From positions 64,001 through 120,433 of IMG/VR virus record IMGVR_UViG_3300025467_000526: a stretch of 56,433 nucleotides of DNA; one strand, given 5' to 3'. Shown piece after piece: positions 8,124 to 24,121 of this stretch. Source of the stretch: a virus. Taxonomy: Duplodnaviria > Heunggongvirae > Uroviricota > Caudoviricetes. Below the pieces are notes generated by a model. It was not told where the DNA came from. It saw only the letters and a program-made list of their open reading frames with translations, and made no database searches. Numbering within the stretch: the first letter of the stretch is position 1; each line of letters opens with the position of its first letter. A program made the translations under genes and the position numbers.

Positions 8124-8124
8124 T

Positions 8125-8577
8125 ATGTGGCAATTTCAATGGATGATGAGTCTAATACCTGATGCAATATTAAACTGGATTTACTGGGCTATAATTGCAG
8201 TAGGACTTACAGGTATGGTTGCAAGTTGGATTGGAAAATTTATTCCGTTCTACGGCAAATATGTAAGAATATTAAAACCTGTTGGAATTGCACTAGTAAT
8301 TTTAGGTGTATGGTTACGCGGCGGCTACGATGTCGAGATGGCGTGGAAAGCAAAAACAGCAGATCTCGAGTCTAAAGTAGCTGTGTCTGAAAAGCAAAGT
8401 AAGGATGCCAACAATCAATTACAAGATGCATTAAAAGGAAAAACTAAAGTTATCCACAATGTACAAGTTGTTGTCAAAGAACATATTGTACACGATGCTT
8501 CGGCCATAGATGCAGAATGTAAACTTGCTCCAGAAGCAATTAAGGATCTTAATGATGCCGCAGGAGTAATCAAATGA
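8125..8577 (+). CDS. Rz-like inner-membrane spanin
   Basis: N-terminal TM segments then coiled coil; follows endolysin, precedes lipoprotein. Confidence 0.7.
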   Translation: MWQFQWMMSLIPDAILNWIYWAIIAVGLTGMVASWIGKFIPFYGKYVRILKPVGIALVILGVWLRGGYDVEMAWKAKTADLESKVAVSEKQSKDANNQLQDALKGKTKVIHNVQVVVKEHIVHDASAIDAECKLAPEAIKDLNDAAGVIK

Positions 8578-8843
8578 AAAGATTACTAATTTTATCAATT
8601 ATTGTTTTACTTGCAGGATGCAGTACAGCAGTTCCTGTTCAAAGACATTTTCCAGATGTACCTGCTGATATGAAGGTAGCGTGTCCAGATTTAAAATTAA
8701 TCGATCCAAATACAAGCAAACTAAGCGATTTAATTTTAGTAGTCAGTGATAATTACGAACAATATAAAGAATGCAAAATTAAAATAGACGCATGGATTGA
8801 ATGGTATAATACTCAGGAAAAAATATTCGATAGCGTCAAATAA
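8574..8843 (+). CDS. Rz1-like outer-membrane spanin lipoprotein
   Basis: Signal peptide with lipobox LLAG-C; Pro-rich N-part, CP..L and Y..C motifs. Confidence 0.8.
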   Translation: MKRLLILSIIVLLAGCSTAVPVQRHFPDVPADMKVACPDLKLIDPNTSKLSDLILVVSDNYEQYKECKIKIDAWIEWYNTQEKIFDSVK

Positions 8844-8846
8844 ATA
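8841..8846 (+). promoter_or_regulatory. Putative late promoter of holin gene
   Basis: TAAATA followed by SD AGGAG and ATG 8871. Confidence 0.5.
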
Positions 8847-8870
8847 GTAGTACAACAAATAGGAGCGACT

Positions 8871-9347
8871 ATGTCAATGAGTCAGAGCGAAAAGAAAAAA
8901 GAAGATTGGATGAACAGTAAATGGCGTCCAATGATGGGCTGGATGTATATGCTAGTCTGTACTATGGATTTTGTAGGATTTCCAGTCCTATGGAGTTTAT
9001 TACAAGCCATGTCCCATGGGCAAGTTAATAGCCAATGGCAACCATTAACACTTCAAGGCGCCGGTTTATTCCATATCGCAATGGGTGCCATTATTGGTGT
9101 AAGTGCATACGGTCGTACACAGGAAAAATTAAACGGTGCTAACAACGGCGGATTAAGTATGCCAACTAATGTTGGAACAACATATACTCCACCTGCTCCA
9201 ATAACAACTCCTGTGCCAGCAGTAACACCAGTAGCAACTCCTGTAACAGCAGTAACACCAGTAGCAACTCCTGTAACAGCAGTAACACCAGCAGTAAACG
9301 CAAGCGGTAAGAAAGTTATTCCAACATTTTCGCAACCAGCACTATAA
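8871..9347 (+). CDS. Holin-like membrane protein (3TM holin family)
   Basis: KWRPMMGWMY, two hydrophobic helices, GAIIGVSAYGRTQEK; within lysis cassette. Confidence 0.7.
   Translation: MSMSQSEKKKEDWMNSKWRPMMGWMYMLVCTMDFVGFPVLWSLLQAMSHGQVNSQWQPLTLQGAGLFHIAMGAIIGVSAYGRTQEKLNGANNGGLSMPTNVGTTYTPPAPITTPVPAVTPVATPVTAVTPVATPVTAVTPAVNASGKKVIPTFSQPAL
9207..9296 (+). repeat. Three tandem in-frame 30-bp repeats (TPVTAVTPVA)
   Basis: ACTCCTGTAACAGCAGTAACACCAGTAGCA at 9207, 9237, 9267 with few mismatches. Confidence 0.95.
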
Positions 9348-9358
9348 GGAAAAATAAA

Positions 9359-9535
9359 ATGAAAAAAATATTAGCATTAGTAATTTCGGCATGTGTACTA
9401 GCTAGTACTCCTGCATTTGCAGAAACTAAAAAGCCAGCACCAAAAAAAGAAGTTAAACATCATAAAAAGGCAGAAGGTACAGAAATCGCAGGTACCAAAC
9501 CCGATACAGTAGTTCAAAAGAAAAAGAAAAAGTAA
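9359..9535 (+). CDS. Small secreted Lys-rich protein (58 aa; not in ORF track)
   Basis: SD AAGGA; MKKILALVISACVLASTPAFA-ETKKPAPKKEVKHHKKAEGTEIAGTKPDTVVQKKKKK; AFA signal-peptidase site. Confidence 0.8.
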   Translation: MKKILALVISACVLASTPAFAETKKPAPKKEVKHHKKAEGTEIAGTKPDTVVQKKKKK

Positions 9536-9544
9536 TTCAAATCT

Positions 9545-9573
9545 TTGACAGGCTCCGTTTAAGATAGTATAAT
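9545..9573 (+). promoter_or_regulatory. Consensus sigma70 promoter of dnaJ-def-clpA
   Basis: TTGACA-17 nt-TATAAT. Confidence 0.9.
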
Positions 9574-9599
9574 TACTATTATTAATTGGAGCCTTTTTT
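9550..9599 (+). terminator. Terminator-like hairpin enclosing the -10 box
   Basis: AGGCTCC (9550-9556) / GGAGCCT (9588-9594) plus T-run; inner ATAGT/ACTAT. Confidence 0.5.
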
Positions 9600-9605
9600 A
9601 CGACC

Positions 9606-10484
9606 ATGACTGATTATTACCAAACATTAGGTGTTAGCGAAACAGCTAGCCCAGAAGAAATTAAAAAAGCATACCGAAGCTTGGCTAATAAACATCATCC
9701 AGACAAGGGTGGAGATCAAGCCAAATTCAAAGATATCAGCGTTGCTTATGATACATTAAGTGATGCTCAAAAGAAAGCCGAATACGACCACCAACGACAG
9801 TTTGGAAACGGACAACAATTCCATTTTCATACAGGCAATCCGTTTGGAGGACAACCTGGGTTCGATCCGTTTGGTGGTATATTTGGTCAACAATTTCCGC
9901 AAGGTCACCCATTTGGGGATATTTTTGGACACATGCGCCGTGGACAACCTCAGCGTAATAGAGATTTAAACATTCAATGTACAATTAGTTTTTTAGATAG
10001 TTATACAGGCAAACAACTTGAAGCCAGCTATCAATTACCTAGCGGTAAGAAACAAAACGTAGTTATTAGTGTACCAGCAGGCGTTAATAATGGAGACACT
10101 ATTCGATATCAAGGGCTGGGCGATGACAGTATGCCTGGACCACGCGGTAATCTTAATGTTACAATTTTAGTTCAAGCAGAACCCGGTTATGAACGTAGAG
10201 GGGATGATATATTCCATGCTGTGGATATTACTCCCATCGAAGCAATGATCGGTTGCAGAAAACATGTAAAAAATTTATCAGGCACTGTATTAGATTTAGA
10301 TATCAGAGCTGGTATAGAACATGGTGCAGAATTTGCTAGTAACGGGCACGGGTTTCCAAATGTAAATAATGGATACAAAGGAAGATTTGTTACAGTAATC
10401 AAAATTAAACCAACTCCTGTAACCGACTCCGGAATTATTCAACAATTAAAAGATATCGATGCTAAAATTAATCAAAGAAACTGA
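9606..10484 (+). CDS. dnaJ: DnaJ/CbpA-type co-chaperone (no zinc finger)
   Basis: J domain with HPD, G/F-rich linker, C-terminal substrate-binding domain (GNLNVTI, RRGDDI). Confidence 0.92.
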   Translation: MTDYYQTLGVSETASPEEIKKAYRSLANKHHPDKGGDQAKFKDISVAYDTLSDAQKKAEYDHQRQFGNGQQFHFHTGNPFGGQPGFDPFGGIFGQQFPQGHPFGDIFGHMRRGQPQRNRDLNIQCTISFLDSYTGKQLEASYQLPSGKKQNVVISVPAGVNNGDTIRYQGLGDDSMPGPRGNLNVTILVQAEPGYERRGDDIFHAVDITPIEAMIGCRKHVKNLSGTVLDLDIRAGIEHGAEFASNGHGFPNVNNGYKGRFVTVIKIKPTPVTDSGIIQQLKDIDAKINQRN

Positions 10485-10965
10485 TCCCATATTAAAACAA
10501 CGTGCTGAAGATTGGGACTTTGGGTTAGATTCTAACGCAGATCAACTTGAAGATGAAATGATTGACATAATGATTGCCAACAATGGAATTGGGTTGGCGG
10601 CAAACCAAGTTGGCTTACTCAAGCGAGTATTTGTTATTAAGTTAGATAACGGTCGTAGGCTAGGAATGTTTAATCCAAGATTAATCAAATCTAGCGAAGA
10701 AATACAAATAGCTGAAGAAGGTTGTTTAAGTTTTCCAGATTTATTTCTAGATATTCCCCGTCCTCAACAAATCGACGTTGCATTTCTTGACAAAAATGCA
10801 CAAGAGTGTACAATGACATTATCAGGCATTACTGCTAGATGTTTCCTCCATGAATTGGATCATTTAAACGGTATATGTTTCACTGATAACATTAGTGTAT
10901 TGAAATTAGCAATGGCTCGTAAACGACAAAACAAGATAAGGAACAGTAATGGTCGAACCAAGTGA
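10459..10965 (+). CDS. def: Peptide deformylase
   Basis: GIGLAANQVG, EEGCLSFP, HELDHLNG. Confidence 0.96.
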   Translation: MLKLIKETDPILKQRAEDWDFGLDSNADQLEDEMIDIMIANNGIGLAANQVGLLKRVFVIKLDNGRRLGMFNPRLIKSSEEIQIAEEGCLSFPDLFLDIPRPQQIDVAFLDKNAQECTMTLSGITARCFLHELDHLNGICFTDNISVLKLAMARKRQNKIRNSNGRTK

Positions 10966-13228
10966 TAACCTACAAGCAGTTTTTGAAAAAGCAATTGATA
11001 CTGCTAAGAAACTACATCACGAATATCTAACAATAGAACATTTATTGTTTGCGATGTTATCCGATGAAGGGTTTACTACTACGATAACAGGGTTTGGTAG
11101 TAATCCTGATGCCCTTAAAATTAATTTAGAAGATTATTTGAATAATAAATGCAAAGAAATCGTACTGAATGAAGTAGTAATTAAACCTAAAAAGACTCAG
11201 AGTGTTGAACGTGTACTTAATCGTGCGTTCACTCAGGTATTATTTAATGGGCGTCAAAAAATTGAACCAACTGATGTGTTCCTTGCTATGATAGGCGAAA
11301 AACGTAGTTGGGCGTATTTTTATATTCATCAAGCTGGTATAGATAAAGATAAATTTGCAGAGTATCTTACAAATACTTCCGAAGAAGAATTTGAAGAATC
11401 TGGTCCACAAGAAGGTACAAGTAGAGCACTAGCGGCATTTACAACTAATTTAAATGAAGAAGTTACTAAGAAAAAGATTGATCCAGTAATTGGTCGTATC
11501 GATGAACTAGAAAACATTGCCCTGGCTTTAGGTCGTCGTAGTAAAAATAACGTAATCCTTGTAGGAGATCCAGGTGTTGGCAAAACTGCTATAGCAGAGG
11601 GGCTTGCCTATAATATCGTAAATGGTGCGGTCCCTGAGTTCTTAAAAGAATACAAGGTTTATAGTTTAGATATTTCAGCTATGCTAGCTGGTAGTAAGTA
11701 TCGTGGCGACTTTGAAGAACGTTTTAAACAAGTACTCAAAGGCCTAGCAAAGAAAGGCAAGACTGTGCTGTTTATCGATGAAGCACACATGATTAGCGGT
11801 GCTGGAAGTGCTAGCAATAGTGCCAACGATCTTGCCAATATGATGAAACCTGCTCTAAGCAAAGGCAACATCAAGGTTATAGCATCAACTACGTGGGAAG
11901 AATATCGTAAACACTTTGAAAAGGATCGTGCATTAATGCGTCGTTTCCAACGCATTACAGTTGATGAACCTACTCAAGAAGTTACACTACAAATTCTTAA
12001 AGGTATTAAGAAGTATTATGAACAATTCCATAATACAAAGATCAAAGACGATGCACTTAATGCCGCTATTAAACTGTCGGTTAAATATCAAACAGACAAA
12101 AAATTACCAGATAAGGCAATCGATTTGATTGACTTGGCATGTAGTCGTTTTAATTTAAAATTAGTTGAAGATCGTATTATTTCTGAACGCGAAATTCAAT
12201 TTGAATTAAGTAAATTGGTTAATATGCCTGAAGAAAAGATTATGGAAACAGAGTCTAGCAATATTGCTAGTTTGCAAACTAATCTTGAAAAAGAAGTGTA
12301 TGGACAAGACATGGCTCTTACAGAAATTGTTGACAAGATTATTGTTGCACAAGCTGGTCTTAAGACAGAAAACAAACCAGTTGGTAGCTTTGTATTCATG
12401 GGTCCTACAGGAACAGGTAAAACTGAAACTGCTAAATCGCTTGCTAAACACTTGGGTGTTAAACTATTGCGTTTTGATATGAGTGAATATCAAGAGAAAC
12501 ACAGTATTAGTAAGTTAATTGGTAGCCCACCAGGATATGTTGGCTTTGAAGAAGATGCTGGACAGTTGATTACACAAATTCAAGAAGCACCTAACGCTGT
12601 TCTGTTGCTAGACGAAGTTGAAAAGGCTCATCCAGATGTGATGACTGTACTGTTGCAACTAATGGACAATGGCTTTATTACCGGATCTAATGGTAAGAAA
12701 GCAGATTGCCGTAACATTATCCTTATTCTTACTACTAATGCTGGCGCAAATTCTGCAGAAAAGAACGCAATTGGGTTTGGTAAACAAGAAAAAGACTATA
12801 GTGATGCAGACTTGAAGAAGTTCCTGACTCCAGAGTTCCGTAATCGTTTGGACGGTGTTGTTACATTCAATAAACTCGGTAAAGATACTATGGTTAAGAT
12901 TGTTAACAAGTTTATTGACGAACTTAAAGAACAGGTTAAAGATAAAGCAGTACGTATTAAAATCAACAAAGAAGCAATTGAATGGTTGATTACTAAAGGA
13001 TTTGATCCTAAGATGGGTGCTCGTCCAGTACAACGAGTAATCGATAAAGAGATCAAACGCAATCTTGCTAAGATGATGTTGTTTGGAGAATTGAAGAATG
13101 GTGGCTGGGCTACTATTACACTCGATAATGATCAATTAGCGATTGTTGCTAAAGCAAAAGAATCTAAAGTACCCTTGCTAACTGTAGACTCTACTACTCC
13201 TTTAGTTGAAATACCAGATGCTGTATAA
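10949..13228 (+). CDS. clpA: ClpA-like Hsp100 AAA+ unfoldase
   Basis: Clp N-domain, two AAA modules (GDPGVGKT, GPTGTGKT), KYRGDFEER, GSPPGYVG, IGF ClpP-docking loop, no ClpB M-domain. Confidence 0.92.
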   Translation: MVEPSDNLQAVFEKAIDTAKKLHHEYLTIEHLLFAMLSDEGFTTTITGFGSNPDALKINLEDYLNNKCKEIVLNEVVIKPKKTQSVERVLNRAFTQVLFNGRQKIEPTDVFLAMIGEKRSWAYFYIHQAGIDKDKFAEYLTNTSEEEFEESGPQEGTSRALAAFTTNLNEEVTKKKIDPVIGRIDELENIALALGRRSKNNVILVGDPGVGKTAIAEGLAYNIVNGAVPEFLKEYKVYSLDISAMLAGSKYRGDFEERFKQVLKGLAKKGKTVLFIDEAHMISGAGSASNSANDLANMMKPALSKGNIKVIASTTWEEYRKHFEKDRALMRRFQRITVDEPTQEVTLQILKGIKKYYEQFHNTKIKDDALNAAIKLSVKYQTDKKLPDKAIDLIDLACSRFNLKLVEDRIISEREIQFELSKLVNMPEEKIMETESSNIASLQTNLEKEVYGQDMALTEIVDKIIVAQAGLKTENKPVGSFVFMGPTGTGKTETAKSLAKHLGVKLLRFDMSEYQEKHSISKLIGSPPGYVGFEEDAGQLITQIQEAPNAVLLLDEVEKAHPDVMTVLLQLMDNGFITGSNGKKADCRNIILILTTNAGANSAEKNAIGFGKQEKDYSDADLKKFLTPEFRNRLDGVVTFNKLGKDTMVKIVNKFIDELKEQVKDKAVRIKINKEAIEWLITKGFDPKMGARPVQRVIDKEIKRNLAKMMLFGELKNGGWATITLDNDQLAIVAKAKESKVPLLTVDSTTPLVEIPDAV

Positions 13229-13805
13229 AATCACTACAAAATTATTTAGAGGAAAATACCAGTACAAAATTGTACTGGTATGCAGTGTTTCTGCATGGTT
13301 CCGTTCGGGGGACATGCCTGAAACTATACAGCGAATTAAAGAATTAGACTCACCCAAACGTCAAGATGCTAAAGAATACGGTCTTAAGATAGCTTTAGAA
13401 CTTCTAAACCATCAAGATGTTGACGTTCGTGTAGAAAGTCCTTGGATTAGTGTATATACTAATGATAAAAAACTAATAGATCGTCTAGCTAAGATTGATA
13501 AAAATAATGTTAAGTACATTAGCGAACCAGCTGGTTCCCTAGAAGAAAATACTATTTTAATGCCCAAGATGAATTTTGATTATCGTATTACCCTGGGTAA
13601 AACTACTCAAGAACACAGTTCATTTATTGCATGGGCGGAATCTAACCCTAAATTAAAACTAACCCCAAGTTGCAAAAAGGATCTATTAAAGGAACGCACT
13701 TGGGGAGGCAAGCATTTTTATCTCACCGGAGATAACAATTTGCTATTGGCTAAGATGCATTTAGGTGGTAGTATAGCTAAAATCGAACGCATTGTTAAAA
13801 AATAA
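13218..13805 (+). CDS. Hypothetical protein
   Basis: Long ORF overlapping clpA end; likely start ATG 13218. Confidence 0.75.
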   Translation: MLYKITTKLFRGKYQYKIVLVCSVSAWFRSGDMPETIQRIKELDSPKRQDAKEYGLKIALELLNHQDVDVRVESPWISVYTNDKKLIDRLAKIDKNNVKYISEPAGSLEENTILMPKMNFDYRITLGKTTQEHSSFIAWAESNPKLKLTPSCKKDLLKERTWGGKHFYLTGDNNLLLAKMHLGGSIAKIERIVKK

Positions 13806-13822
13806 ACTCGTTACAAAAGCGA

Positions 13823-13828
13823 TAAATA
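13823..13828 (+). promoter_or_regulatory. Putative late promoter of head-protein cluster
   Basis: GATAAATACT. Confidence 0.55.
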
Positions 13829-13874
13829 CTCTAACCGCAGAGATTTCTGCTGATTTATTAAAACGGGCTTAAAA

Positions 13875-14249
13875 ATGCGTATACGTGAACTATTTGAAGG
13901 TAATTTTTTTAAAGATGCCGATTATGTACAAGCTAAAGAAGGTGGCGAGCGTGAAATTAACTACGATTTAGTTGATGATATAGCACACTTTATGGAACAA
14001 GACGATCACTGCTATCGTCGATTCTTTCATCCTGCATTGGATCGATTCCTTCATGTCAGAGAAAATAAAAAAGATCCTAAGCCTGAAATCTTTAAAGAAG
14101 CTGTCAAAGAATGTTATAAAATATACGTTCAAAAATTTCCCATCCGTGAACTACCAGATGAATTAGATGAAGATACACTAGGTCAAGTTTGTGAAAAATT
14201 GTATGATGAACACAGTACACATCATGCTGATGGCAAATACAAGGATTAA
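13875..14249 (+). CDS. Putative head-internal protein (MRIRELFEG N-terminus)
   Basis: Shared N-terminal motif with neighbours. Confidence 0.6.
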   Translation: MRIRELFEGNFFKDADYVQAKEGGEREINYDLVDDIAHFMEQDDHCYRRFFHPALDRFLHVRENKKDPKPEIFKEAVKECYKIYVQKFPIRELPDELDEDTLGQVCEKLYDEHSTHHADGKYKD

Positions 14250-14251
14250 TA

Positions 14252-17200
14252 GTGTTTCTTAGAGAATTATTTTATCGTAACCACTCTGCTTTAAACGAAG
14301 GCGGAAACCTTAGCATTGGCGATGCAGACAGTGGTGAACCAGTACACTATGCAGACAAGATAGATTTAGCAGTACATAATCGTACGTACATGGTTGGACT
14401 TTTAAATAAGTTATTGCATGACATTAATCTAGCATTTCATAAACAAACTAGAAAAAATTTATGGGAACCTAACCTACTAAAGAGCAAAGAATTCCTAAGC
14501 GGTAGTAGTTTGCATTTCTTTAACACTGAAGGTATTAGTGATGAGGAATTTGCCAAACATAAACCACGTGTGGGCGATATCGATACACAATGCAATAGAG
14601 ATTTAGAACCACAAGTTAAAGAATTCTTAACAAAATATACAAACAAACAGATCGGCGACACTACATTGCTAGGATTTGGTAGTGGTAATGAACAGTATAA
14701 CGCATTATTCCAATTTGCAAATCCTCCAATCAAAATACAAATCGATTTTGAATTTGGCGAGTATGAAGGCGGAGTTCCTAACGATTGGTTTAAATTTAGC
14801 CATAGCTCAGAGTGGAACGATGTTTCAAACAATATTAAAGGTGTGTTCCACAAATATTTGTATAGAGCATTAGCAGGTTCAATTAAAGTACATGCACATC
14901 TAAAATCATCGGAAGGTCGAGGCAAAGCCAAAGTAACTACAGTAACTCCCGATCATCTTTCAAAATATTCATTTGGGGTATCAGGTAAACAAGGCGGTGG
15001 TCTAAGTGAACCATACAGTCCAGTAGTGGGAGACAATGACGAGCCGCAAGAATTACCACATCCAGAAAATCCGCAACAACAGTTGCCAGTAATGCAAGTG
15101 GCAAAACCAGAAACTCGTGTATACGATCAGCATCTACATAGTCAATTTAAAAAACTATTTCTACGAAATAATCCTAATGCAGAACCTACTCCAGAAGATT
15201 TAAAATTACAATGGAGTTTCTTAGGTACTGTTGACTTAATAGGCAAATATCTATCTAAACAAGAACAACACGAAACAGTAAAACGTTTCTTTGAAATTTG
15301 TTTCGAACCTGGCAGTCAGATGATCGAGCGTGATGATCCTAAAAGTGATGCCGATATTAAATTTGCCGCTATTGATCAAATGTTAGAAAAATTGAATCTA
15401 ACAAATATGAGATCATTAGCAGTTGACATGGCAAAAGAATACGAGGGAGAATTTTTAGATTTAGAAAAATTTAAAAAGAGCTATCAGCGTACTCCAGACC
15501 AAGCTGGTAAAAAAATACAATACGGTAGACATAGAAAAGATGCTATTGCCGGCGGTACATGGCCAGATTGGCGTAAAAACTCAACCGAACAAATATTTGA
15601 AGCAGAAGTCAAAGCTCAACTTAGAAAAAATATGCCGCATATGAAAGATCTAAAAGCCATAGACTTTTTAGATCTAGTAGATGAATTACACGACAATGGT
15701 AAATTTCAACTAAAAAATATTCCATTAAATGTTAAAATAGATGGATTTGGTGGGCGGTTTGGTAAAGACTCGGAAGGTAAACCTTTCATGGGTACTAGTA
15801 ATACTCCTCCTAGATACGAAGCTGGTTTTTTAAAATATCATCAGGCAAAGGGCACACAGGATCCAGAAATACTAGGTCGTGCTAAAAAATTCGACGATTT
15901 ATTTAATGAAATGATCAAGGCAGTTAAACTAGTCGACGATGCCGCAGGTCCAGAGTTGCTTATGAATAAACAAGTAACTTGTGAAGTTTTATTTTTACCA
16001 TTTGCTACAGAAACTGAAGAAGGCAAATTAAAATTTGTTGGTATCCATTACAATAAATTACCAAGAGGTGTACAGTTAGCCTTAGTTCCATTCCGTGTAG
16101 CAGATGCAACTACTGGAGAAGATGTACCAGATGCGGCGAAGATTATTAAAACTATTACTAGCATTGGACAACAAGGTAGTATTATGTTTATCAGTAACGC
16201 ATTAACACAAAATAAACCGTTAGACGTAACTGAAATTATCAATGTTTTAGATAATATCGACGAACTTAAACGCATCGTTTCAGATACGCATGGTAAACGT
16301 GATCGTGCCAGTGTACAGTTAAGAAAAGAAGTTGAAGAAAAACTAGCACCAGTTAAACTTGAATTAGAAAAAGCTATTATTAATGATCCTAACATTGTTG
16401 GAAAAGATTTGCTAGGTAAAGACTACGAAGGTATTGTCATTAATAGTCGACTGGGTCCTATTAAAATTACTAGTCAAGAACAGCGAGATGTTATTAGTGC
16501 CAAAATGGCGGCTAAGGCAAGTGCAAGAACCGAACGTCCTCGTGAAAATTCTAACAAAACGGCTGTAGTTGCTATCGGTAGCTTTGTAGGCCACATCGGG
16601 CATGAGCAATTATTTGACTATACTATTAAAAAAGCACAACAAGTAGGAGGTGATCCTTATTTGTTTATTGGAAATGCTGAAGGCAAAAACGATCCTATCC
16701 CACCAAATGTTAAAGTTCAAACATGGCATAAAATGTATCCAAATTATGCCGCTAATATTAGTACAGTAACACACGAAGGCGGTACGCTAATTCAAAAAAT
16801 TAAACATGAATTAATTAATCCGTTACCGGGCAAGCCTCCACGATACGATAATATTATTATTATGGTAGGTGAAGATCAAGCAGGGTTGAATATGCCAGCC
16901 GCTTTAATGAAGGCAGTTAATAAGTTTCAAGGGTACGAACATGTAAAAGTTAGTTTAGAAACTACACCTCGTGGAACCGGTATGAGCTTTACTCAGTTGC
17001 GTAATATTCTTAAAGATCCAAAAGCTACTCCGCAACAACAGTTGGCGTTATGGGAAAAAGGGTTTGATGTTAACAAATTAGGCAGAGCATGGATTCAACA
17101 TCTAATGGATTTGACACGTAAGGGTATGGGAATTACAACACCAAAACATACACATCATGTTCAGAAACCTGCTATTCCTGCACCAGAACAAGAACCGCTA

Positions 17201-17653
17201 AATATAAAAGAAGCAAATTATTGGATTAGAAAAATGCGAGCAAACGAATTTATAAAAAAACAGTTGTCCGAAGGCGATATTCCAGCTAACGGTAAGAAAT
17301 TTGACAAAAGCGAAATGGATGCAGTTCGTGGAGCATTGAGTATGCCGGGCATCAGTATTAACAAAGCTAACGGTAATCCTTATTCTGGATATCGTTTTGG
17401 TATTGCTATGGCTGGCGCACACAGTAAAGCCAATCACGAACACCATCAAATAACTCCGCCAGCAGGACCTATGGCTGGGGATCCTTTGTTAACTGTGTTT
17501 GCTGATGAAGAATATGATATCATTAAAAATGCCGCTAAAATGGTAATGGCTGGTCCTATTGTTCAGCTTAGTGACATGCGTAGTCATGAATTACCCACAA
17601 CCAACAAAACAAGTCCTGTGGCTAATAAAAAACGTAACAAGTACGGTGTATAA
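14252..17653 (+). CDS. Multidomain protein: Pol-beta-like nucleotidyltransferase + ATP-dependent ligase-like domain + HIGH nucleotidyltransferase + C-terminal paralog module
   Basis: GS84-85...GD109ID111...D165; VK495IDG, CE578V, E726GIVI, IK738; H781IGH, MVGED, MSFTQLR; GTG start. Confidence 0.75.
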   Translation: MFLRELFYRNHSALNEGGNLSIGDADSGEPVHYADKIDLAVHNRTYMVGLLNKLLHDINLAFHKQTRKNLWEPNLLKSKEFLSGSSLHFFNTEGISDEEFAKHKPRVGDIDTQCNRDLEPQVKEFLTKYTNKQIGDTTLLGFGSGNEQYNALFQFANPPIKIQIDFEFGEYEGGVPNDWFKFSHSSEWNDVSNNIKGVFHKYLYRALAGSIKVHAHLKSSEGRGKAKVTTVTPDHLSKYSFGVSGKQGGGLSEPYSPVVGDNDEPQELPHPENPQQQLPVMQVAKPETRVYDQHLHSQFKKLFLRNNPNAEPTPEDLKLQWSFLGTVDLIGKYLSKQEQHETVKRFFEICFEPGSQMIERDDPKSDADIKFAAIDQMLEKLNLTNMRSLAVDMAKEYEGEFLDLEKFKKSYQRTPDQAGKKIQYGRHRKDAIAGGTWPDWRKNSTEQIFEAEVKAQLRKNMPHMKDLKAIDFLDLVDELHDNGKFQLKNIPLNVKIDGFGGRFGKDSEGKPFMGTSNTPPRYEAGFLKYHQAKGTQDPEILGRAKKFDDLFNEMIKAVKLVDDAAGPELLMNKQVTCEVLFLPFATETEEGKLKFVGIHYNKLPRGVQLALVPFRVADATTGEDVPDAAKIIKTITSIGQQGSIMFISNALTQNKPLDVTEIINVLDNIDELKRIVSDTHGKRDRASVQLRKEVEEKLAPVKLELEKAIINDPNIVGKDLLGKDYEGIVINSRLGPIKITSQEQRDVISAKMAAKASARTERPRENSNKTAVVAIGSFVGHIGHEQLFDYTIKKAQQVGGDPYLFIGNAEGKNDPIPPNVKVQTWHKMYPNYAANISTVTHEGGTLIQKIKHELINPLPGKPPRYDNIIIMVGEDQAGLNMPAALMKAVNKFQGYEHVKVSLETTPRGTGMSFTQLRNILKDPKATPQQQLALWEKGFDVNKLGRAWIQHLMDLTRKGMGITTPKHTHHVQKPAIPAPEQEPLNIKEANYWIRKMRANEFIKKQLSEGDIPANGKKFDKSEMDAVRGALSMPGISINKANGNPYSGYRFGIAMAGAHSKANHEHHQITPPAGPMAGDPLLTVFADEEYDIIKNAAKMVMAGPIVQLSDMRSHELPTTNKTSPVANKKRNKYGV

Positions 17654-18177
17654 TGAGAGCGAAAGAATTCATAGTTGAACAATCTGTAAAACCAACAGAT
17701 TCTCCTGCCAAGGCTTCTAAAAAAGCCAAACAAACCCAGGTTGTCAAACCCTACGTGGCTAAAGATTTTCCTATGAAGAAAAAATTAGGCGATTTTGGTC
17801 TAGATCCACACGAAGCACATAGTCAAAGTCAAAGCAACACCGAATATGGTAGTACTAAAGGAGATGTACCTATAGAGGCCGTAGCGGCTATGCCGGGTGC
17901 ATTTAGTGTTCAAGATATTCCTAGCGATTTCTACAGCATGTATCGTATTGGAGTAGCTATTGCCGGCGGTGAAAGAAACGTGGCTTCAAAAGATAATTTT
18001 GGTAAGCATCCATTCTTTATGCCTTTTTCAGAACAAGAACATGCTAAAATTACCAAAGATATTAAACGTATCGGTCACGACATTGAATTACGAACAACTC
18101 CTGAAAGTTTAGAATTGTCGACTGTAAACCAAAAAAGTCCAGTAGCTAAACGCAAGCCAAACAAATACGGTGTATAA
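17653..18177 (+). CDS. Putative head-internal protein, paralog of the C-terminal module of 14252-17653
   Basis: MRAKEFIVE start; MPG..Y..YR.G.A.AG; ends SPVAKRKPNKYGV. Confidence 0.7.
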   Translation: MRAKEFIVEQSVKPTDSPAKASKKAKQTQVVKPYVAKDFPMKKKLGDFGLDPHEAHSQSQSNTEYGSTKGDVPIEAVAAMPGAFSVQDIPSDFYSMYRIGVAIAGGERNVASKDNFGKHPFFMPFSEQEHAKITKDIKRIGHDIELRTTPESLELSTVNQKSPVAKRKPNKYGV

Positions 18178-18617
18178 TGGAACATAACAAATATCATTTA
18201 GCCCTTAAAACAGCATTTGCCAGTGAATTTAGTTTTTATCTAAAAGCACACAACTTTCATTGGAACGTAGAAGGTCCATTGTTTGAAAGTCTACATGCAT
18301 TGTTTGAAAGAATTTATTTAGAAGTATACGGTAGTATCGACACATTTGCAGAACATTTACGTGCATTACAAATTTATGCACCAGGAAGTTTACAAAAGTT
18401 TAGTATGTTAACTAATGTACGTGATGAAAATGATGTTCCAGGATTTCACGAGATGCTGAGCGAATTGTTACAAGACAGCGAAAAAATGGCTAATATTTTC
18501 CGTATTACTTTTGAAATGGCAGAACAAAATGGCGATCATGGATTAAGCAATTTCTTAGCCGACCGTCAAGATGCACATAAAAAGCATAGCTGGATGTTAA
18601 GAGCGAGCTTGAAGTAA
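18177..18617 (+). CDS. dps: Dps-family ferritin-like protein
   Basis: KAHNFHWNVEG..F..LH..FE, DTFAEH, HKKHSWML. Confidence 0.92.
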   Translation: MEHNKYHLALKTAFASEFSFYLKAHNFHWNVEGPLFESLHALFERIYLEVYGSIDTFAEHLRALQIYAPGSLQKFSMLTNVRDENDVPGFHEMLSELLQDSEKMANIFRITFEMAEQNGDHGLSNFLADRQDAHKKHSWMLRASLK

Positions 18618-18847
18618 TGGATGAACTAGCACGTCTTAAGAAGTTGGCAGGCATTAATGAATTTAAGGGCTTGCAACCTTATGGCGGAAGTAACATCAGT
18701 ATAACTGGTACAGAGAAACGCATTATCGAACGTGAACAAAATATACAACCTGGAACTGAAGAATGGTTCAAACTATGGTTTAGTTTACCTAAATTTATGG
18801 GTGGAGAACGTGCAGTAGGTAATGGGTTTAGAGGAATCAAAAAATGA
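18617..18847 (+). CDS. Small putative head protein (ELARLKKLAGINE)
   Basis: TAATG-coupled; motif shared with cluster. Confidence 0.65.
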   Translation: MDELARLKKLAGINEFKGLQPYGGSNISITGTEKRIIEREQNIQPGTEEWFKLWFSLPKFMGGERAVGNGFRGIKK

Positions 18848-19422
18848 AAATTAAAGAATTGTTAGAAGGCCCTTATGAAGATGGCGTAAATGATGGTAAA
18901 CGAGGTCATCGAAATCCACGTGCCAGTTCTATATATGGTCCTTCATCAGATCATTATGAAAAAGGTTACCAACACGGCGTCACCTTAGGAAAAAAAGAAG
19001 GTGAAGCAAACGTAAGAAGATATGAAGAGTGGCTTAAACCTTTTTCACATCTGTCAAATGAAGAACTTCACGACCTAGCAGAAAAATTTAGACGTAGTCC
19101 AGAAGATAGAATGGCAAATGGACAACCGTATCCATATAACAGTAAATTTCAAGCAATACATCAAGTATTAGGTCAGCGAAGACACAATCCAAATTATGGG
19201 TTAGATGCTAAACATGGTGTAGCGGAATCAGCTAGTGCAGGTGCTACAAGTAGTGCTAGTATTGCCAGTGTTCCTAACCCTAATTACGCCAATAATGCTA
19301 ATAAAAAACCTGTAAAAAGCGTTAGTGCCCTTGATCAAAATAGTGTAAGTTTATTTGGCGCACCTATGGAAACCATGAAAAACAAAACAGGTAAAAAGTT
19401 AGCAATAATCAAAAGACGCTAA
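18844..19422 (+). CDS. Putative head-internal protein (MKIKELLEG ... VAESASAGATSS)
   Basis: Shared N-terminal motif, ATGA-coupled. Confidence 0.65.
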   Translation: MKIKELLEGPYEDGVNDGKRGHRNPRASSIYGPSSDHYEKGYQHGVTLGKKEGEANVRRYEEWLKPFSHLSNEELHDLAEKFRRSPEDRMANGQPYPYNSKFQAIHQVLGQRRHNPNYGLDAKHGVAESASAGATSSASIASVPNPNYANNANKKPVKSVSALDQNSVSLFGAPMETMKNKTGKKLAIIKRR

Positions 19423-19450: not shown

Positions 19451-20935
19451 ATGTCAGATTTAGATCAATTGAACCCAGGAATGGGCACAGCAGAAGCAGG
19501 GGCAGAAATGCCAGGCGATACTGCCGGTGGTCAAGAGCATCATCTAGAACTATCCCCTGAAGACAAACAGCAACAGGGCAAAATGGCCAAGGCCGATTTA
19601 TATAAATTAGCCAGCTATTCACACAAATTATTCAAACAGTTACACGATGATGACGAATTAGAAAACTGGGTTGAAGCCAAGATTACTAAAGCGGCAGACT
19701 ATATTGCTACTGTATATCACTATTTAGAATATGAAATGAAAGTAAACGAATTCGGCAAACATTTGAATGATGCTGAGATCACCAATGAGCAACGTGCTCA
19801 TATGGAAACTATGCTATCGGAGGCAAAAATGAAGATTGCTGAATTAAAGAAAACTCAAGCTGTTAAAATGTTAATGCGTGAAGAAAAATCATCAACTGGT
19901 GGAGATATTGATCGTTCAAAGCCAGGTGTAGTAAAACACAAACATAATCCAGATCGTTTCAGTGATGAGCCACACTCTGAGCCAGCAAGCAAAGCCAAAG
20001 GTCAATCAAGTGCTGAAAAGAAAGCTGGTCGTGATATGGATAAAGAAGAAAACAAACGTGGTAAAGAATGGGAAAAGAAATATCCTGGATCACGTCATAT
20101 TTACAAAGCTAAAGATGACAGTGATGATGGCATTGATGAAAGCATGGAAGATTGCGAGCATTGTGGCGGTTCAGGACAAGTTGCAAAAACTCCTCCTAAA
20201 GCACATCCAGATCATGCAGAAAAAATTAACAAGTATAAAACATTAAAGAACGCTGTTAAAGCTATTGTAAACGATCATAGCGAAGATGGTGAAATGGTTC
20301 CAGAAGGTAAAAAATCTAAGCCAGACTTTTTAGATTTAGACAAAGACGGTAACAAAAAAGAGCCAATGAAGAAGGCTGCCGCTGACAAGAAAAAAATGTC
20401 AGAAGCTAAAGCTAAGTGTTGCTGTGAAGAAAAAGGTAAAGCTAAATGCCCAGTTCACGGTAAAGTTGAAGAAAGCAAACCAAGTGCTGGATTGAGTGCC
20501 GCTAAGAAATCTGCTACAGTTAAGAAAGCTAAGTCCGGTGGAGACATTGGTAAACCAGGTAAGAACTTTGATAAGCTAGCTAAGAAAGCTGGTGGTGGTG
20601 AGAAAGGTGAAAAGATTGCCGCTGCCGCTATGTGGAAGAACATCAAAGAAACTACTGCATATATCGAAGAAAAGAAAGCAATTGAAAAGAAAGCTGACAA
20701 AGATTACGATGGAGATGGCAAAGTAGAATCTCCTAAAGATGAAGTTTGGGGTTCACGTGCAAAAGCCGCCGCTAAAGCAGGACATCCATTTGGTAAAAAA
20801 GAAACTGTTAAAGAATCTACAGAAGTAGATCGTATGCGTGAATTAACAGGTCGTCTGAATCGTAATGAAAACATTATCAACGAATCACGCGAAGCTGATA
20901 CTTTCCGTAAATTAACAAACATTCTTAAAGGGTAA
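19451..20935 (+). CDS. Highly charged putative head-internal/scaffold-like protein
   Basis: K/E-rich, many hxE-[S/G/A] sites, DLDKDG and DYDGDG loops. Confidence 0.7.
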   Translation: MSDLDQLNPGMGTAEAGAEMPGDTAGGQEHHLELSPEDKQQQGKMAKADLYKLASYSHKLFKQLHDDDELENWVEAKITKAADYIATVYHYLEYEMKVNEFGKHLNDAEITNEQRAHMETMLSEAKMKIAELKKTQAVKMLMREEKSSTGGDIDRSKPGVVKHKHNPDRFSDEPHSEPASKAKGQSSAEKKAGRDMDKEENKRGKEWEKKYPGSRHIYKAKDDSDDGIDESMEDCEHCGGSGQVAKTPPKAHPDHAEKINKYKTLKNAVKAIVNDHSEDGEMVPEGKKSKPDFLDLDKDGNKKEPMKKAAADKKKMSEAKAKCCCEEKGKAKCPVHGKVEESKPSAGLSAAKKSATVKKAKSGGDIGKPGKNFDKLAKKAGGGEKGEKIAAAAMWKNIKETTAYIEEKKAIEKKADKDYDGDGKVESPKDEVWGSRAKAAAKAGHPFGKKETVKESTEVDRMRELTGRLNRNENIINESREADTFRKLTNILKG

Positions 20936-20940
20936 TACCC

Positions 20941-22650
20941 GTGGACATGAAGCGTATCCTACAGGCTATGGATGGAGTTGCTACCAAGCCTGTAGTAGGC
21001 GCTAATGAAATGTCTAAATTTCTTCGTATTGTTAACGAAGACCCATATCAACGTTCAGGCGAATACGTCGACCTCGACGATCCTAAATACAAAAATGCTG
21101 TAGATGCAAGAGGCGGCCAAGTTCAAGGCGGTTCCGGCGAATGGGGCATGCAACAAATGTATCATGGATTCGGTTATTGTACTCAAGATAGTACAATGCG
21201 AGCTCAAGAACTTGCTAAGGCTATGAAAATAGACTGGAACAAAATTGGGCAGGAACTAGATGCATACAATAAGGACCATGTTAAAAAAGGTTCTAGATAT
21301 GTACGATATGCAACTTTAAACACAATACCAACTGAGCTCCTTGTCGATGGCGAATGGATTCCTATTCCTAAAAATCTTTATACTGGCGCTGAACGTGAAG
21401 TATTAGCAATGGGCGGTAGTACTGAACTTGATAGAATTGGAATGGATGATCCTGGAGTGGGTTGCGAGGACGATGCCCCGTTAGGGAAAGCACATCCTCT
21501 ACGTGGCAATCGTTATATCAAACCAGGAACTAAATTATTTTCCAAAGATCAAAATGGGCAACCTAATCAAAGTGCATCACCTACCGGTACTACTGCTCCG
21601 GCAGATCCTAAGATCATGCAGTTACAAAAAGAATTAATATCCGCGGGAGAACGCGGAAAACTAGGTCCATTTGGACCAAATCATGATGGAGTCGATGGAG
21701 TAATGGGAAAATATACTAAGGCCGCTATAAGTCGTCATCCTGATATTGCAAAGAAATATTTTCCAACAAGTACAGATGAAAGTATAAACAAATTTTTATC
21801 TATCATTGACAAAAATGATGTCAAAATTTTAAAAGAAGAAGTTAACAATAACACAGTTTTAAACGAAGGTGCCAATCCTCATAAAGTGTCATTGCCGGTA
21901 CAAATGGCGATGCAACACTATCAAGCACCGAAAGAAACTGTTATTTCAAAACCAACTGTTCTTAAATCTTATTTTAAAGAAGTTGAAGACCAACATTTAG
22001 AAGCTGTTACAGAAAAGAAACAACTAATGCGTCAGTACGCTAGCCATATTGCCGAACGTGTTTTAATGAAAGAATCCGCTAGTTCTAAAAAGCAGGATGT
22101 AGCAGAAGTTAAACAACGATTAGATGCTAAATGCTGGACAGGCAAACACAAAGAAGGCACCAAGATTAAAGGCGGTGTTCGTGTTAATAACTGTGTACCA
22201 AACGAAAGTGTTATTAGTGAAAAAAGTACTACAGAAAAACAAGCACGTACTATGGCCGCTGCCGCACATAATCCAGAGTTTGCTAAAAAATTAGGTATTA
22301 AATCTAGTGTTGCTAAAGAGTTTAATAAAGCCGATACAGGTACTAAAAAACTAAGCAATGCTATGAAGCATAAGAAGAAAGTTAAAGAAGATCAAAATTC
22401 AGATCACAGAATAGGGTTCGATCCTATGGGAGCAACTCCAGGAGTAATGGATGCAAAAGATGCTACACCAAGCGGCGGACATCTTAATTTAGAAGACGCT
22501 CAGTCAAAACTACATCCAACCAAACGTTATCGTATGATGCGCCGATTGAGCAAAAAAGGCGGTTACGATTTAAGTCATTTAGAACTTGCAAGCGATGAAG
22601 AACTACATCATCTATACGCACAGCATGGTTTAAAAGAAATCAGAAAATAA
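20941..22650 (+). CDS. Putative head-internal protein with peptidoglycan-binding domain
   Basis: IMQLQKELISAG...DGVDGVMGKYTKAAI (PG_binding_1-like); micro-modules CWTG..GTKIKGG..VNNCVP and MAAAAHNPEFAKKLGI. Confidence 0.65.
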   Translation: MDMKRILQAMDGVATKPVVGANEMSKFLRIVNEDPYQRSGEYVDLDDPKYKNAVDARGGQVQGGSGEWGMQQMYHGFGYCTQDSTMRAQELAKAMKIDWNKIGQELDAYNKDHVKKGSRYVRYATLNTIPTELLVDGEWIPIPKNLYTGAEREVLAMGGSTELDRIGMDDPGVGCEDDAPLGKAHPLRGNRYIKPGTKLFSKDQNGQPNQSASPTGTTAPADPKIMQLQKELISAGERGKLGPFGPNHDGVDGVMGKYTKAAISRHPDIAKKYFPTSTDESINKFLSIIDKNDVKILKEEVNNNTVLNEGANPHKVSLPVQMAMQHYQAPKETVISKPTVLKSYFKEVEDQHLEAVTEKKQLMRQYASHIAERVLMKESASSKKQDVAEVKQRLDAKCWTGKHKEGTKIKGGVRVNNCVPNESVISEKSTTEKQARTMAAAAHNPEFAKKLGIKSSVAKEFNKADTGTKKLSNAMKHKKKVKEDQNSDHRIGFDPMGATPGVMDAKDATPSGGHLNLEDAQSKLHPTKRYRMMRRLSKKGGYDLSHLELASDEELHHLYAQHGLKEIRK

Positions 22651-22682: not shown

Positions 22683-23282
22683 ATGTACAAGAAAATCTCC
22701 AATAACACATATCAACGTTTACGCTATTTCCCAACCTATGCGTTGGACGATACTGTTTTTACGCTAAAAGAATTAGATCAAATTATAGAGCATACTTCCA
22801 AATTAGGATTAATGCCAGGAATAGATCGAGGAAACGTAAGAAAGAGTGATATAAATTTTATGCATCCTAACAAAGATAACTATTGGATCTTTGAAAGATT
22901 CAACGATGCACTGGATTATATGAATGAAAAATATTTCAATTTTGACATAAACGGTTACGAGTTCATACAATATTCAACTTATGAAGCTGATAAAGATGGA
23001 AGATATGATTTTCACATAGACATGGCGTTAGGTGAAATGATGAAAGATTGGCATGAAAATAGAAAATTGTCCATGACATTATTATTAAACGAACCTGGAG
23101 TCGATTTTGAAGGCGGAGATTTTGAATTTAATACATGTGGGGATAATAGAACCGAAAGACCAAAAATGCGTAAAGGTGCTTTGATTTTATTTCCAAGTTT
23201 TATGATGCATCGTGTTACACCCGTTACAAAGGGTATTAGAAAAAGTTTAGTTATTTGGTTAACCGGACCAAAATTTAAATAA
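22683..23282 (+). CDS. 2OG-Fe(II) oxygenase (prolyl-hydroxylase-like)
   Basis: YDFHID (HxD), RKLSMTLLL, FEGGDF, FPSFMMHRVTPV..G.RKSLV.W. Confidence 0.9.
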   Translation: MYKKISNNTYQRLRYFPTYALDDTVFTLKELDQIIEHTSKLGLMPGIDRGNVRKSDINFMHPNKDNYWIFERFNDALDYMNEKYFNFDINGYEFIQYSTYEADKDGRYDFHIDMALGEMMKDWHENRKLSMTLLLNEPGVDFEGGDFEFNTCGDNRTERPKMRKGALILFPSFMMHRVTPVTKGIRKSLVIWLTGPKFK

Positions 23283-23599: not shown

Positions 23600-24121
23600 A
23601 TGCGAGTAGTACAACAGCCCAGTGCATTTTTAATTACTAAACTAGATCAGCACGAACTAATTAAAGAACACTTGCTTGAATCAATTAGTAAGTTAGGTGA
23701 ACATAGTATTATTGAAGAGAATGGATTGATTCCACAACGTATTTCAAATACTGACTGGGGTCAATCATTAAATTCGACATATTTTAATATAATGAGTCCG
23801 TTGCTCAAAGAGCATTGTAGACAAGTTAAAAATATGTTAAAATTACCATTTAATATTGATTGTATCGATTATTGGTTTCAACAATATCGTACAGGAGATT
23901 ATCACAGTTGGCATAGTCATGCTAATTGTCTATATTCGAATGTATACTATTTAGATTTACCAGAAGGCTCAAGTAAAACAACTTTTAAATTTATTGACGA
24001 AGAATTCGAAGTAGAAGTAACCGAAGGCGATATATTAACTTTTCCAGGGTCAGTGCTACATTGTAGTAAACCAAATAAAAGTGAACAGACAAAAACTGTT
24101 ATTGCTTTCAACACAAGATAA
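23600..24121 (+). CDS. Putative 2OG-Fe(II) oxygenase
   Basis: YHSWHSHANCLYSNVYYL, EGDILTFPGSVLHC, KTVIAFN. Confidence 0.8.
   Translation: MRVVQQPSAFLITKLDQHELIKEHLLESISKLGEHSIIEENGLIPQRISNTDWGQSLNSTYFNIMSPLLKEHCRQVKNMLKLPFNIDCIDYWFQQYRTGDYHSWHSHANCLYSNVYYLDLPEGSSKTTFKFIDEEFEVEVTEGDILTFPGSVLHCSKPNKSEQTKTVIAFNTR

Follow-up and report, generated by a model that had tools for sequence, protein, structure and literature searches.

Three nucleotidyltransferase folds behind a capsid-targeting-like leader in one polyprotein of a giant lake phage related to T4

Proteins known to be injected by phages include inhibitors (T4 IPI), ADP-ribosyltransferases (Alt), RNA polymerases (N4, phiKZ-like), and anti-restriction proteins (P1 Dar). 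The T4 capsid targeting sequence (CTS) is MKTYQEFIAE (PMC8442874), and the T4 protease gp21, which cuts after Glu, processes the injected enzyme Alt at ITE-6 and LTE-619 (PMC5694885). Jumbo phages and bacteria also encode RNA repair modules in which an RNA ligase is combined with RlaP or with a CCA-adding Pol-beta nucleotidyltransferase (Burroughs and Aravind; PMC7824862), and experiments have identified T4-GC190, a member of the cyanophage core, as a structural protein of the virion (PMC3037559). Here we describe a gene of a giant, uncultured lake phage related to T4 that brings features of these systems together in one protein. The gene lies on a 56,433-nucleotide (nt) stretch of DNA, referred to here as the window (positions 64,001 to 120,433 of IMG/VR record IMGVR_UViG_3300025467_000526). 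It is open reading frame (ORF) 14252-17653 on the + strand, a single frame of 1133 codons with a GTG start located 3 nt past the stop of the upstream gene. We found that it encodes three nucleotidyltransferase modules and a small tail module behind a T4-type leader. This polyprotein is real, widespread, and undescribed; in the literature searched, we found no paper describing a triple-nucleotidyltransferase fusion and none mentioning DUF6267, the Pfam family whose shape module 2 matches.

A first-pass annotation of the gene had proposed that one polypeptide carries three unrelated nucleotidyl-transfer folds. Our data agree with this proposal, two of the folds being recovered by confident structure models together with fold searches and the third by profile homology. 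The motifs listed in that annotation are all found at exactly the residues it gave, namely G84-S85, D109-I-D111, and D165 in module 1, K495-I-D-G, E578, E726-G-I-V-I, and K738 in module 2, and H781-I-G-H, MVGED (870-874), and MSFTQLR (911-917) in module 3, and the catalytic residues among them are invariant across relatives. Judged from these residues, all three modules look catalytically competent. Modules 1 and 2 had no match in PDB sequence searches (phmmer and profile), Pfam, or NCBIfam, and member-by-member Pfam scans of their families (111 and 38 sequences) likewise returned none.

The module-1 alignment comprises 111 sequences with a mean column identity of 26%, distant stand-alone forms included. 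Across these sequences, down to 27% identity, G84, S85, D109, D111, Q163, D165, D190, K196, D366, and K370 are invariant. The hG[GS] motif, the DxD motif, the third carboxylate, and the palm fold that characterize the Pol-beta superfamily are all present in module 1. The spacing from GS to DxD is 24 residues, and the usual spacing in the superfamily is 9-13 residues. An AlphaFold2 model of residues 17-450, built from the family alignment, reached a predicted local distance difference test (pLDDT) score of 93.9, and Foldseek matched it to the palm and thumb of DNA polymerase beta (probability 1.0, E 5e-4), with fold alignments that span palm and thumb only (pol beta residues 142-335). Outside its own family, the nearest Pfam-labelled shapes in the ESM Atlas were a viral mini-PolX of 193 amino acids (aa; template modelling (TM) score 0.66 by hit) and giant-virus PolX-ligase fusions, and cGAS-like receptors gave weak whole-domain matches. 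No Pfam DNA_pol_B_palm or DNA_pol_B_thumb match was found in this protein or in the 111 members, and the fold alignments do not reach the 8-kDa/HhH DNA-binding domains of family X, which places module 1 short of full family X membership, and RlaP (PF10127) matched neither this protein (E<=0.1) nor any of the 111 members (E<=0.01). Module 1 thus represents a new family within the Pol-beta superfamily, most like a minimal (African swine fever virus (ASFV)-type) family-X polymerase with a helical C-terminal addition. It bears more resemblance to such a minimal DNA polymerase than to an enzyme of the CCA-adding kind, which would make DNA gap-fill-and-seal at least as likely a function as RNA repair. 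A complex prediction of module 1 with the 124-aa protein encoded immediately upstream scored 0.00 against a mark of 0.32 in a run without controls and gives no verdict.

Module 2 was modelled with similar confidence (residues 451-765, family alignment, pLDDT 95.6), and its model matches ATP-dependent RNA ligases in fold searches. Motifs I, III, IV, and V of the covalent nucleotidyltransferases occur in order on that fold, and K495, D497, G498, E578, E726, G727, K738, and T740 are invariant among 38 sequences down to 28% identity. The modelled fold lacks an OB domain and is followed in the protein by the HxGH module instead. None of the 38 members matches Pfam RNA_ligase, RNA_lig_T4_1, or DNA_ligase_A_M, and module 2 therefore falls outside the named RNA and DNA ligase families (Rnl1-5, DNA ligases), which have characteristic flanking domains (OB, Rnl1/Rnl2 C-domain, or Rnl5 N-terminal OB). 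Its shape matches Pfam DUF6267 (TM 0.66) as well as viral fusions of DUF6267 with CTP_transf_like. At the sequence level, DUF6267 (PF19782) gave no match to module 2, and the hhalign comparison with the DUF6267 protein of cyanophage P-HM2 was weak (E 0.013). Module 2 is best read as a sister family of DUF6267, and its modelled fold appears to resemble RNA ligases more than DNA ligases.

Module 3 contains both hallmarks of the HxGH superfamily, H781-x-G-H784 and R917 within SFTQLR, and H781, G783, H784, G873, D875, and R917 are invariant among 36 module-3 sequences. Residues 763-921 match a PHROG annotated as cytidyltransferase (E 2.6e-11), and the whole length of the module is homologous to the T4-GC190 'cytidyltransferase' of P-HM2 (hhalign 98.5%, E 3.5e-15). 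The latter protein, PHM2_163, itself passes the Pfam CTP_transf_like cut-off (28.5 bits vs 21). The HxGH stretch matches RibF (E 6e-4); the matches of this protein's own module 3 to FAD_syn are sub-threshold only, NCBIfam gives weak RibF-type matches, and none of the NMNAT, PPAT, and FMNAT family profiles in Pfam and NCBIfam reaches threshold. Module 3 may serve in cofactor synthesis or in the adenylylation of a 5'-phosphate.

The N-terminus of the polyprotein has the leader pattern of T4-type internal head proteins that are targeted by a CTS and processed by gp21. Four adjacent genes, starting at 13875, 14252, 17653, and 18844, encode M-x-x-[RK]-E-[LF]-[FIL] starts (MRIRELFEG, VFLRELF...ALNEGG, MRAKEFIVEQ, and MKIKELLEG, respectively), and a scan of the whole contig for ORFs above 100 aa matched only those four. 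Among 78 diverse module-1 proteins, the leader is 5-22 residues long and always ends in h-x-E directly before an invariant GGN, while 25 other relatives have no leader and begin at MGGN. The mature protein predicted for either class thus has GGN at its N-terminus, and this pattern is the strongest of the comparative evidence. In some relatives (P0063, P0040, P0048, and others) an N-terminal extension homologous to the 124-aa protein is joined to module 1 via L-M-E/GGN.

Four h-x-E sites had been proposed at the module boundaries, and all four are present; the first two are conserved and the last two are poorly kept. L14-N-E16/G17 is retained in 118 of 120 close relatives, with G or A after the glutamate, and I448-F-E450/A451 in 118 of 121, with A following in 112. 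Residues 444-450 have a pLDDT below 50, consistent with a disordered linker, and stand-alone module-2 proteins begin at about this point. The C-terminal sites lie in a variable region, I985-K-E987/A988 being kept in 13 of 64 relatives and L1005-S-E1007/G1008 in 12 of 34. No h-x-E with a hydrophobic P3 residue was found between modules 2 and 3, which fits the observation that modules 2 and 3 together are a common free-standing architecture. The paralogy of the last module to the product of the next gene, also part of the first-pass annotation, was recovered by BLASTP (33% identity to ORF 17653-18177 over 115 residues, E 8e-12). This module is preceded by an internal MRANEFIKKQLSEG, which resembles the N-terminus of the same product (MRAKEFIVEQ), and its C-terminal ending recurs in relatives and in small neighbouring proteins.

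Evidence for late expression comes from the window itself and from described homologues. The motif ATAAATA occurs in 15 + strand copies in the contig, 10 of them inside the 4% that is intergenic and 14 of them no more than 50 nt upstream of a + strand gene start. In six of the seven relatives' loci examined, a box is found 26-53 nt ahead of the 124-aa gene, and the gene order is conserved too. The T4 late promoter consensus is TATAAATA; in its strict form it has only two copies in the window, which is below chance, and neither is near the gene; the shorter ATAAATA is the enriched box. Since the upstream genes have a sigma-70 promoter and the leader-tagged genes have their own ATAAATA box, the leader-tagged cluster looks like a separate late unit. 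In P-HM2, PHM2_162 and PHM2_163, the homologues of modules 2 and 3, fall into 'Late' expression clusters in both light and dark (PMC5082946 supplement 3).

Published mass spectrometry has detected homologues of two modules, 1 and 3, in virions. Gene 1-56 of Campylobacter phage vB_CcoM-IBB_35 (contig 1, 39251-40417) is a module-1 homologue (tblastn E 2e-18), and its product is among 38 proteins identified by electrospray ionization tandem mass spectrometry of purified particles, with 17% coverage (PMC3322345 Table S2). The CP220 orthologue of this gene begins MKLSELMFILE/GGN. The P-HM2 coordinates 146351-146902 stand in the T4-GC190 supplementary row, marked YES (PMC3037559). In four of five gene-carrying relative contigs of 200-229 kb, Peptidase_S77, the family of T4 gp21, exceeds the Pfam cut-off; the protease and capsid profiles PF03420 and PF07068 had no match in the phage's own 120-kb contig, which is an approximately 33% fragment, and this absence says nothing. 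The suggestion that the protein is packaged and protease-processed thus has good indirect support, which comes from the leader/GGN pattern, the E450/A site, the gp21-type protease of relatives, the late box, and the mass spectrometry of virions containing homologues.

The polyprotein has many relatives. A word-index search returned 692 relatives of similar length, in which the first approximately 965 residues are approximately 60% identical while the C-termini vary, and total length ranges from 972 to 1919 residues among the relatives listed. A HMMER profile search of 1.84 billion cluster representatives returned 1205 proteins at E<=1e-3. The modules occur in several combinations: module 1 alone (66 of 147 representatives), 1+2, 2+3, 2 alone, 3 alone, and all three. 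Fusion order also varies, P0208 for example having a BUDD-type cytidylyltransferase ahead of module 1, and other relatives carry HD_4, an amidoligase, a second NTP_transf_2, or DUF6934 as C-terminal additions. In Xanthomonas phage BUDD, homologues of module 1 (hhalign E 1e-52) and module 2 (E 2e-23) are encoded in the same order, separated by a gene for a 333-aa protein and followed by a CTP_transf_like (Pfam) protein. In P-HM2 the T4-GC190 gene begins within the DUF6267 gene, whose product has KWDG, EGYV, and VKL motifs. Because the modules are adjacent in BUDD, paired in P-HM2, and fused in several orders, we suggest that they work together.

Further candidates in these phages were considered and rejected. 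The 333-aa protein of BUDD has no significant similarity to module 1 or 2, and PHM2_161 and PHM2_164 have none to either. The 162-aa cytidylyltransferase of BUDD reaches E 0.012 only against module 3 and belongs to a different branch of the HxGH superfamily. Stand-alone or split homologues adjoin 7-deazaguanine or radical-SAM genes in some phages (TGT and QueE in BUDD, 6530-9398; radical-SAM in CP220, 83807-85975), which may reflect shared lineage or a functional link; a tie to 7-deazaguanine DNA modification was set aside as unsupported beyond this co-occurrence in related phages. Window positions 13200-18200 are nearly identical (0.97-0.99 of sampled words) in 20 freshwater or lake metagenome runs from 2017, 2018, and 2020, nine of which are not flagged as a possible source, and the sequence was found in no RNA run. 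The lake phage seems to persist over years.

We propose the following course for the polyprotein. Made late as a precursor of approximately 125 kDa, it would enter the prohead through its T4-type N-terminal targeting leader, where the phage's gp21-type protease would most likely cleave it behind Glu16 and Glu450, with Glu987 and Glu1007 as possible further sites. The predicted products are a free Pol-beta/family-X-like nucleotidyltransferase with the mature N-terminus GGN (residues 17-450), a unit of the ligase-type and HxGH nucleotidyltransferases (residues 451 to approximately 987), and the small tail module. The cleaved products would remain in the head and go into the cell along with the DNA, and they would most likely work on broken nucleic-acid ends, ahead of all phage gene expression. 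Module 1 may add nucleotides to a 3'-OH as fill-in or tailing, module 2 may seal a nick between a 3'-OH and a 5'-phosphate via a lysyl-AMP intermediate, and module 3 may transfer a nucleotide to a phosphorylated substrate or produce a nucleotide cofactor. The combination of a mini-PolX-like enzyme with a nick-sealing-type ligase suggests an 'extend and seal' activity on broken ends. Both RNA repair, by the logic of RlaP plus ligase, and DNA gap repair, as with ASFV and giant-virus PolX plus ligase or with LigD, fit this combination, and a ribonucleotide-patch mechanism, which is speculation, would reconcile a PolX-like module with an RNA-ligase-like module.

We infer the packaging, the cleavage of this particular protein, the injection, and every statement on substrates from the patterns described above, and we do not hold these steps with equal confidence. 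Packaging of this protein in the head is probable. A role in nucleic-acid repair is a tentative assignment, and the whole chain, in which a late precursor is packaged, cut, injected, and then works on broken nucleic-acid ends, appears to us evenly balanced between right and wrong. Its boldest version, in which large aquatic T4-related phages carry a capsid-borne and precut 'extend, activate and seal' kit that mends breaks made by nucleases or sunlight in the arriving DNA, or cleaved host tRNAs, ahead of phage gene expression, is rather unlikely; if true, it would be a pre-synthesised repair and counter-defence system of a kind not known from any phage. Several observations weigh against the proposed course. 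The phage's own contig has no protease or capsid gene, and the triple-enzyme gene sits amid replication genes, with the clamp loader on one side and the DNA polymerase on the other. Relatives that begin at MGGN and the leaderless cyanophage homologues indicate that CTS targeting is dispensable for the enzymes; a leaderless cyanophage homologue (T4-GC190) nonetheless occurs in virions. A structural role, and not cleavage, might explain the invariant E-GGN, and the two C-terminal h-x-E sites are poorly conserved.

The polyprotein might also be packaged and injected and yet act on small molecules or host proteins, with module 3 working on NAD+ or another cofactor and module 1 making a signal nucleotide or nucleotidylylating a protein, in the service of host takeover or of blunting nucleotide-based immunity. 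We consider this unlikely since the fold neighbours of module 2 are polynucleotide ligases only and the best-supported neighbours of module 1 are family-X polymerases and RNA tailing enzymes, and since no NMNAT, PPAT, or FMNAT profile reached threshold for module 3. A second alternative is that the protein is never packaged and serves in the cytoplasm as a repair or replication accessory, its PolX-like and ligase modules filling and sealing gaps in the replicating or modified phage DNA, in the manner of the giant-virus PolX-ligase fusions or bacterial LigD, and its leader being no targeting signal. The position of the gene between clamp loader and DNA polymerase would suit such a role, as would the shape of module 1, which is closest to mini-PolX and the giant-virus PolX-ligase fusions, the BUDD split genes, which adjoin primase/helicase and 7-deazaguanine genes, and the many relatives without a leader. 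Homologues of modules 1 and 3 are nevertheless found in purified virions and the P-HM2 homologues are late; the leader/h-x-E/GGN pattern and the late-type box are conserved and neighbouring genes share the leader; and module 2 is nearer to RNA than to DNA ligases and has no OB domain. On this evidence a purely cytoplasmic role is improbable. That the protein chiefly builds or scaffolds the head and that its enzyme-like domains are inactive relics is very improbable, for although it clusters with low-complexity Lys/Glu-rich proteins and has tail modules common to proteins annotated as structural, every catalytic residue of the three folds is invariant in hundreds of sequences at 27-60% identity, which is unexpected for relics.

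Table 1. Features of the triple-enzyme gene and its surroundings, in window coordinates (a slash marks the bond after the glutamate of an h-x-E motif)
Feature	Position	Strand	Details
gp44-like clamp loader	4344-5261		PHROG match
Perfect sigma-70 consensus promoter (TTGACA, 17 nt, TATAAT)	9545-9573		Precedes DnaJ/deformylase-like/ClpB genes
DnaJ-like gene	9606-10484
Peptide-deformylase-like gene	10459-10965		Judged from N-terminus alone
ClpB-like two-ring AAA+ ATPase	10949-13228
Late-promoter-like box ATAAATA	13822-13828	+	46 nt upstream of 124-aa gene
124-aa protein, leader MRIRELFE/G	13875-14249	+	Leader scan; fused ahead of triple enzyme in some relatives
Capsid-targeting-like leader, residues 1-16	14252-14299	+	VFLRELF...ALNE/GGN, end L14-N-E16/G17
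Module 1, residues 17-450	14300-15601	+	Palm/thumb-like, then helical C-terminal part
Predicted protease site I448-F-E450/A451	15593-15604	+	Module 1/2 linker
Module 2, residues 451-760	15602-16531	+	ATP-dependent ligase-type (covalent lysyl-NMP) domain, no OB domain
Module 3, residues 761-965	16532-17146	+	HxGH (cytidylyltransferase-like) nucleotidyltransferase
Linker, residues 966-1007	17147-17272	+	I985-K-E987/A988, then leader-like MRANEFIKKQLSE1007/G
Module 4, residues 1008-1133	17273-17650	+	Tail module ending ...SPVA.KK.NKYGV
174-aa protein, leader MRAKEFIVE/Q	17653-18177	+	Module 4 paralogue (BLASTP, leader scan)
Dps/ferritin-like gene	18177-18617		No leader; Pfam Ferritin E 2e-22
76-aa protein beginning MDELARLKKLAGI	18617-18847		Motif recurs in relatives
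192-aa protein, leader MKIKELLE/G	18844-19422	+	Leader scan
494-aa Lys/Glu/Ala-rich protein	19451-20935		Cys clusters CEHCGG, KCCCEE...CPVHG
569-aa ORF	20941-22650	+	PHROG 'virion structural protein' families, E 1e-10; CW..G..K.GTK.KGG..V.NCVP motif at 22225-22359
gp43-like DNA polymerase	24190-26856		PHROG match

The window covers the right-hand portion of a viral contig of 120 kb, rated approximately 33% complete by CheckV, which points to a whole phage genome of roughly 350 kb. A T4-type replication set, exonuclease included (PHROG), surrounds the triple-enzyme gene, with the ClpB-like ATPase close upstream and the Dps/ferritin gene shortly downstream (Table 1). The first-pass annotation had placed the gene in a late head-protein cluster. 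The cluster of leader-tagged, late-looking proteins held up; no canonical head gene was found in the window or the 120-kb contig, and the region is one of replication genes. The sigma-70 promoter set (9545-13805) ends with a gene for a 199-aa protein that follows the ClpB-like gene, and the order DnaJ-like/deformylase-like/ClpB-like/199-aa is identical in all relatives examined. These genes probably form an early chaperone module.

Downstream, the 174-aa gene is present in 0-2 copies in the relatives' loci; the Atlas model of its product is disordered (pLDDT 0.36), and an Atlas search gave sub-0.9 leads only. The Dps gene is embedded in the leader-tagged late cluster, and relatives keep it at this position. 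Its presence may hint that DNA is shielded from oxidative damage, which fits a theme of genome protection and proves nothing. The 76-aa and 494-aa proteins are conserved in position and matched no known family. The CW..NCVP motif of the 569-aa ORF also occurs at the C-termini of many triple-enzyme relatives (P0017, P0022, P0029, P0063), and it has a tblastn match to the 121Q gp51 'structural protein' and its relatives. The CW..NCVP 'structural proteins' of the 121Q/PBECO4/Rak2-like 350-kb phages likewise adjoin a DnaJ-like gene (genes 49-51 in 121Q). The shared motif hints at a set of head-internal proteins common to the lake phage group and the Asteriusvirus-like jumbo phages. Two further ORFs of approximately 175-200 aa (22683-23282 and 23600-24121) have sequences that, read by eye, recall 2OG-Fe(II) oxygenases (e.g., ...FPSFMMHRVTPV...).

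If the polyprotein is packaged, its three nucleotidyltransferases would bring nucleic-acid end chemistry into the opening seconds of an infection. The family also connects three orphans: the protein detected in Campylobacter phage virions, the virion 'cytidyltransferase' that marine T4-like cyanophages carry in their core genome, and Pfam DUF6267. The proposal can be put to the test in phages that are in culture (CP220/IBB_35, P-HM2/Syn9, and Xanthomonas phage BUDD).

Compared with described systems, the locus is similar to T4 IPI-III and Alt in its MKTYQEFIAE-like leader, predicted h-x-E cuts, gp21-family protease in relatives, late-looking expression, and homologues in virions, and as in Alt the proposed cargo is an enzyme. 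It differs from them in that three nucleotidyltransferases form one precursor of approximately 125 kDa with an internal cut site, in that sequence homology is absent, and in that processing and injection are predictions here. The cyanophage pair T4-GC71 (DUF6267) and T4-GC190 (PHM2_162/163) has homology to module 3, the shape of module 2 together with its KxDG/EGxV/K motifs, and an identical order and adjacency, and the cyanophage genes are late with T4-GC190 in the virion; in contrast, the pair consists of separate, leaderless genes with no module 1, and module 2 of the lake phage misses the DUF6267 profile.

The RNA repair modules of jumbo phages and bacteria share with this protein the coupling of a Pol-beta nucleotidyltransferase to an ATP-dependent RNA-ligase-type enzyme and the proposed logic of first replacing lost nucleotides and then sealing. 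However, module 1 is not RlaP (no PF10127) and is nearer to mini-PolX, no kinase/phosphatase end-healing module is present, and the enzymes of the lake phage are fused, leader-tagged, and apparently packaged. Unlike the PolX and ligase pairs (ASFV PolX plus ligase, the giant-virus fusions, LigD), module 2 has neither an OB nor a DNA-binding domain and lies closer to RNA ligases, an AP endonuclease or phosphoesterase is missing, and the similarity is at the level of fold only (TM 0.34-0.66). Finally, the polyvalent proteins of phages and conjugative elements, reportedly described by Iyer, Burroughs, Anand, de Souza, and Aravind in 2017, are alike in that several unrelated and swappable enzymatic modules are joined in one long protein thought to enter with the DNA. 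The lake phage protein has another set of modules, and its T4-type leader and protease sites suggest that it is packaged in the head and cut into separate enzymes.

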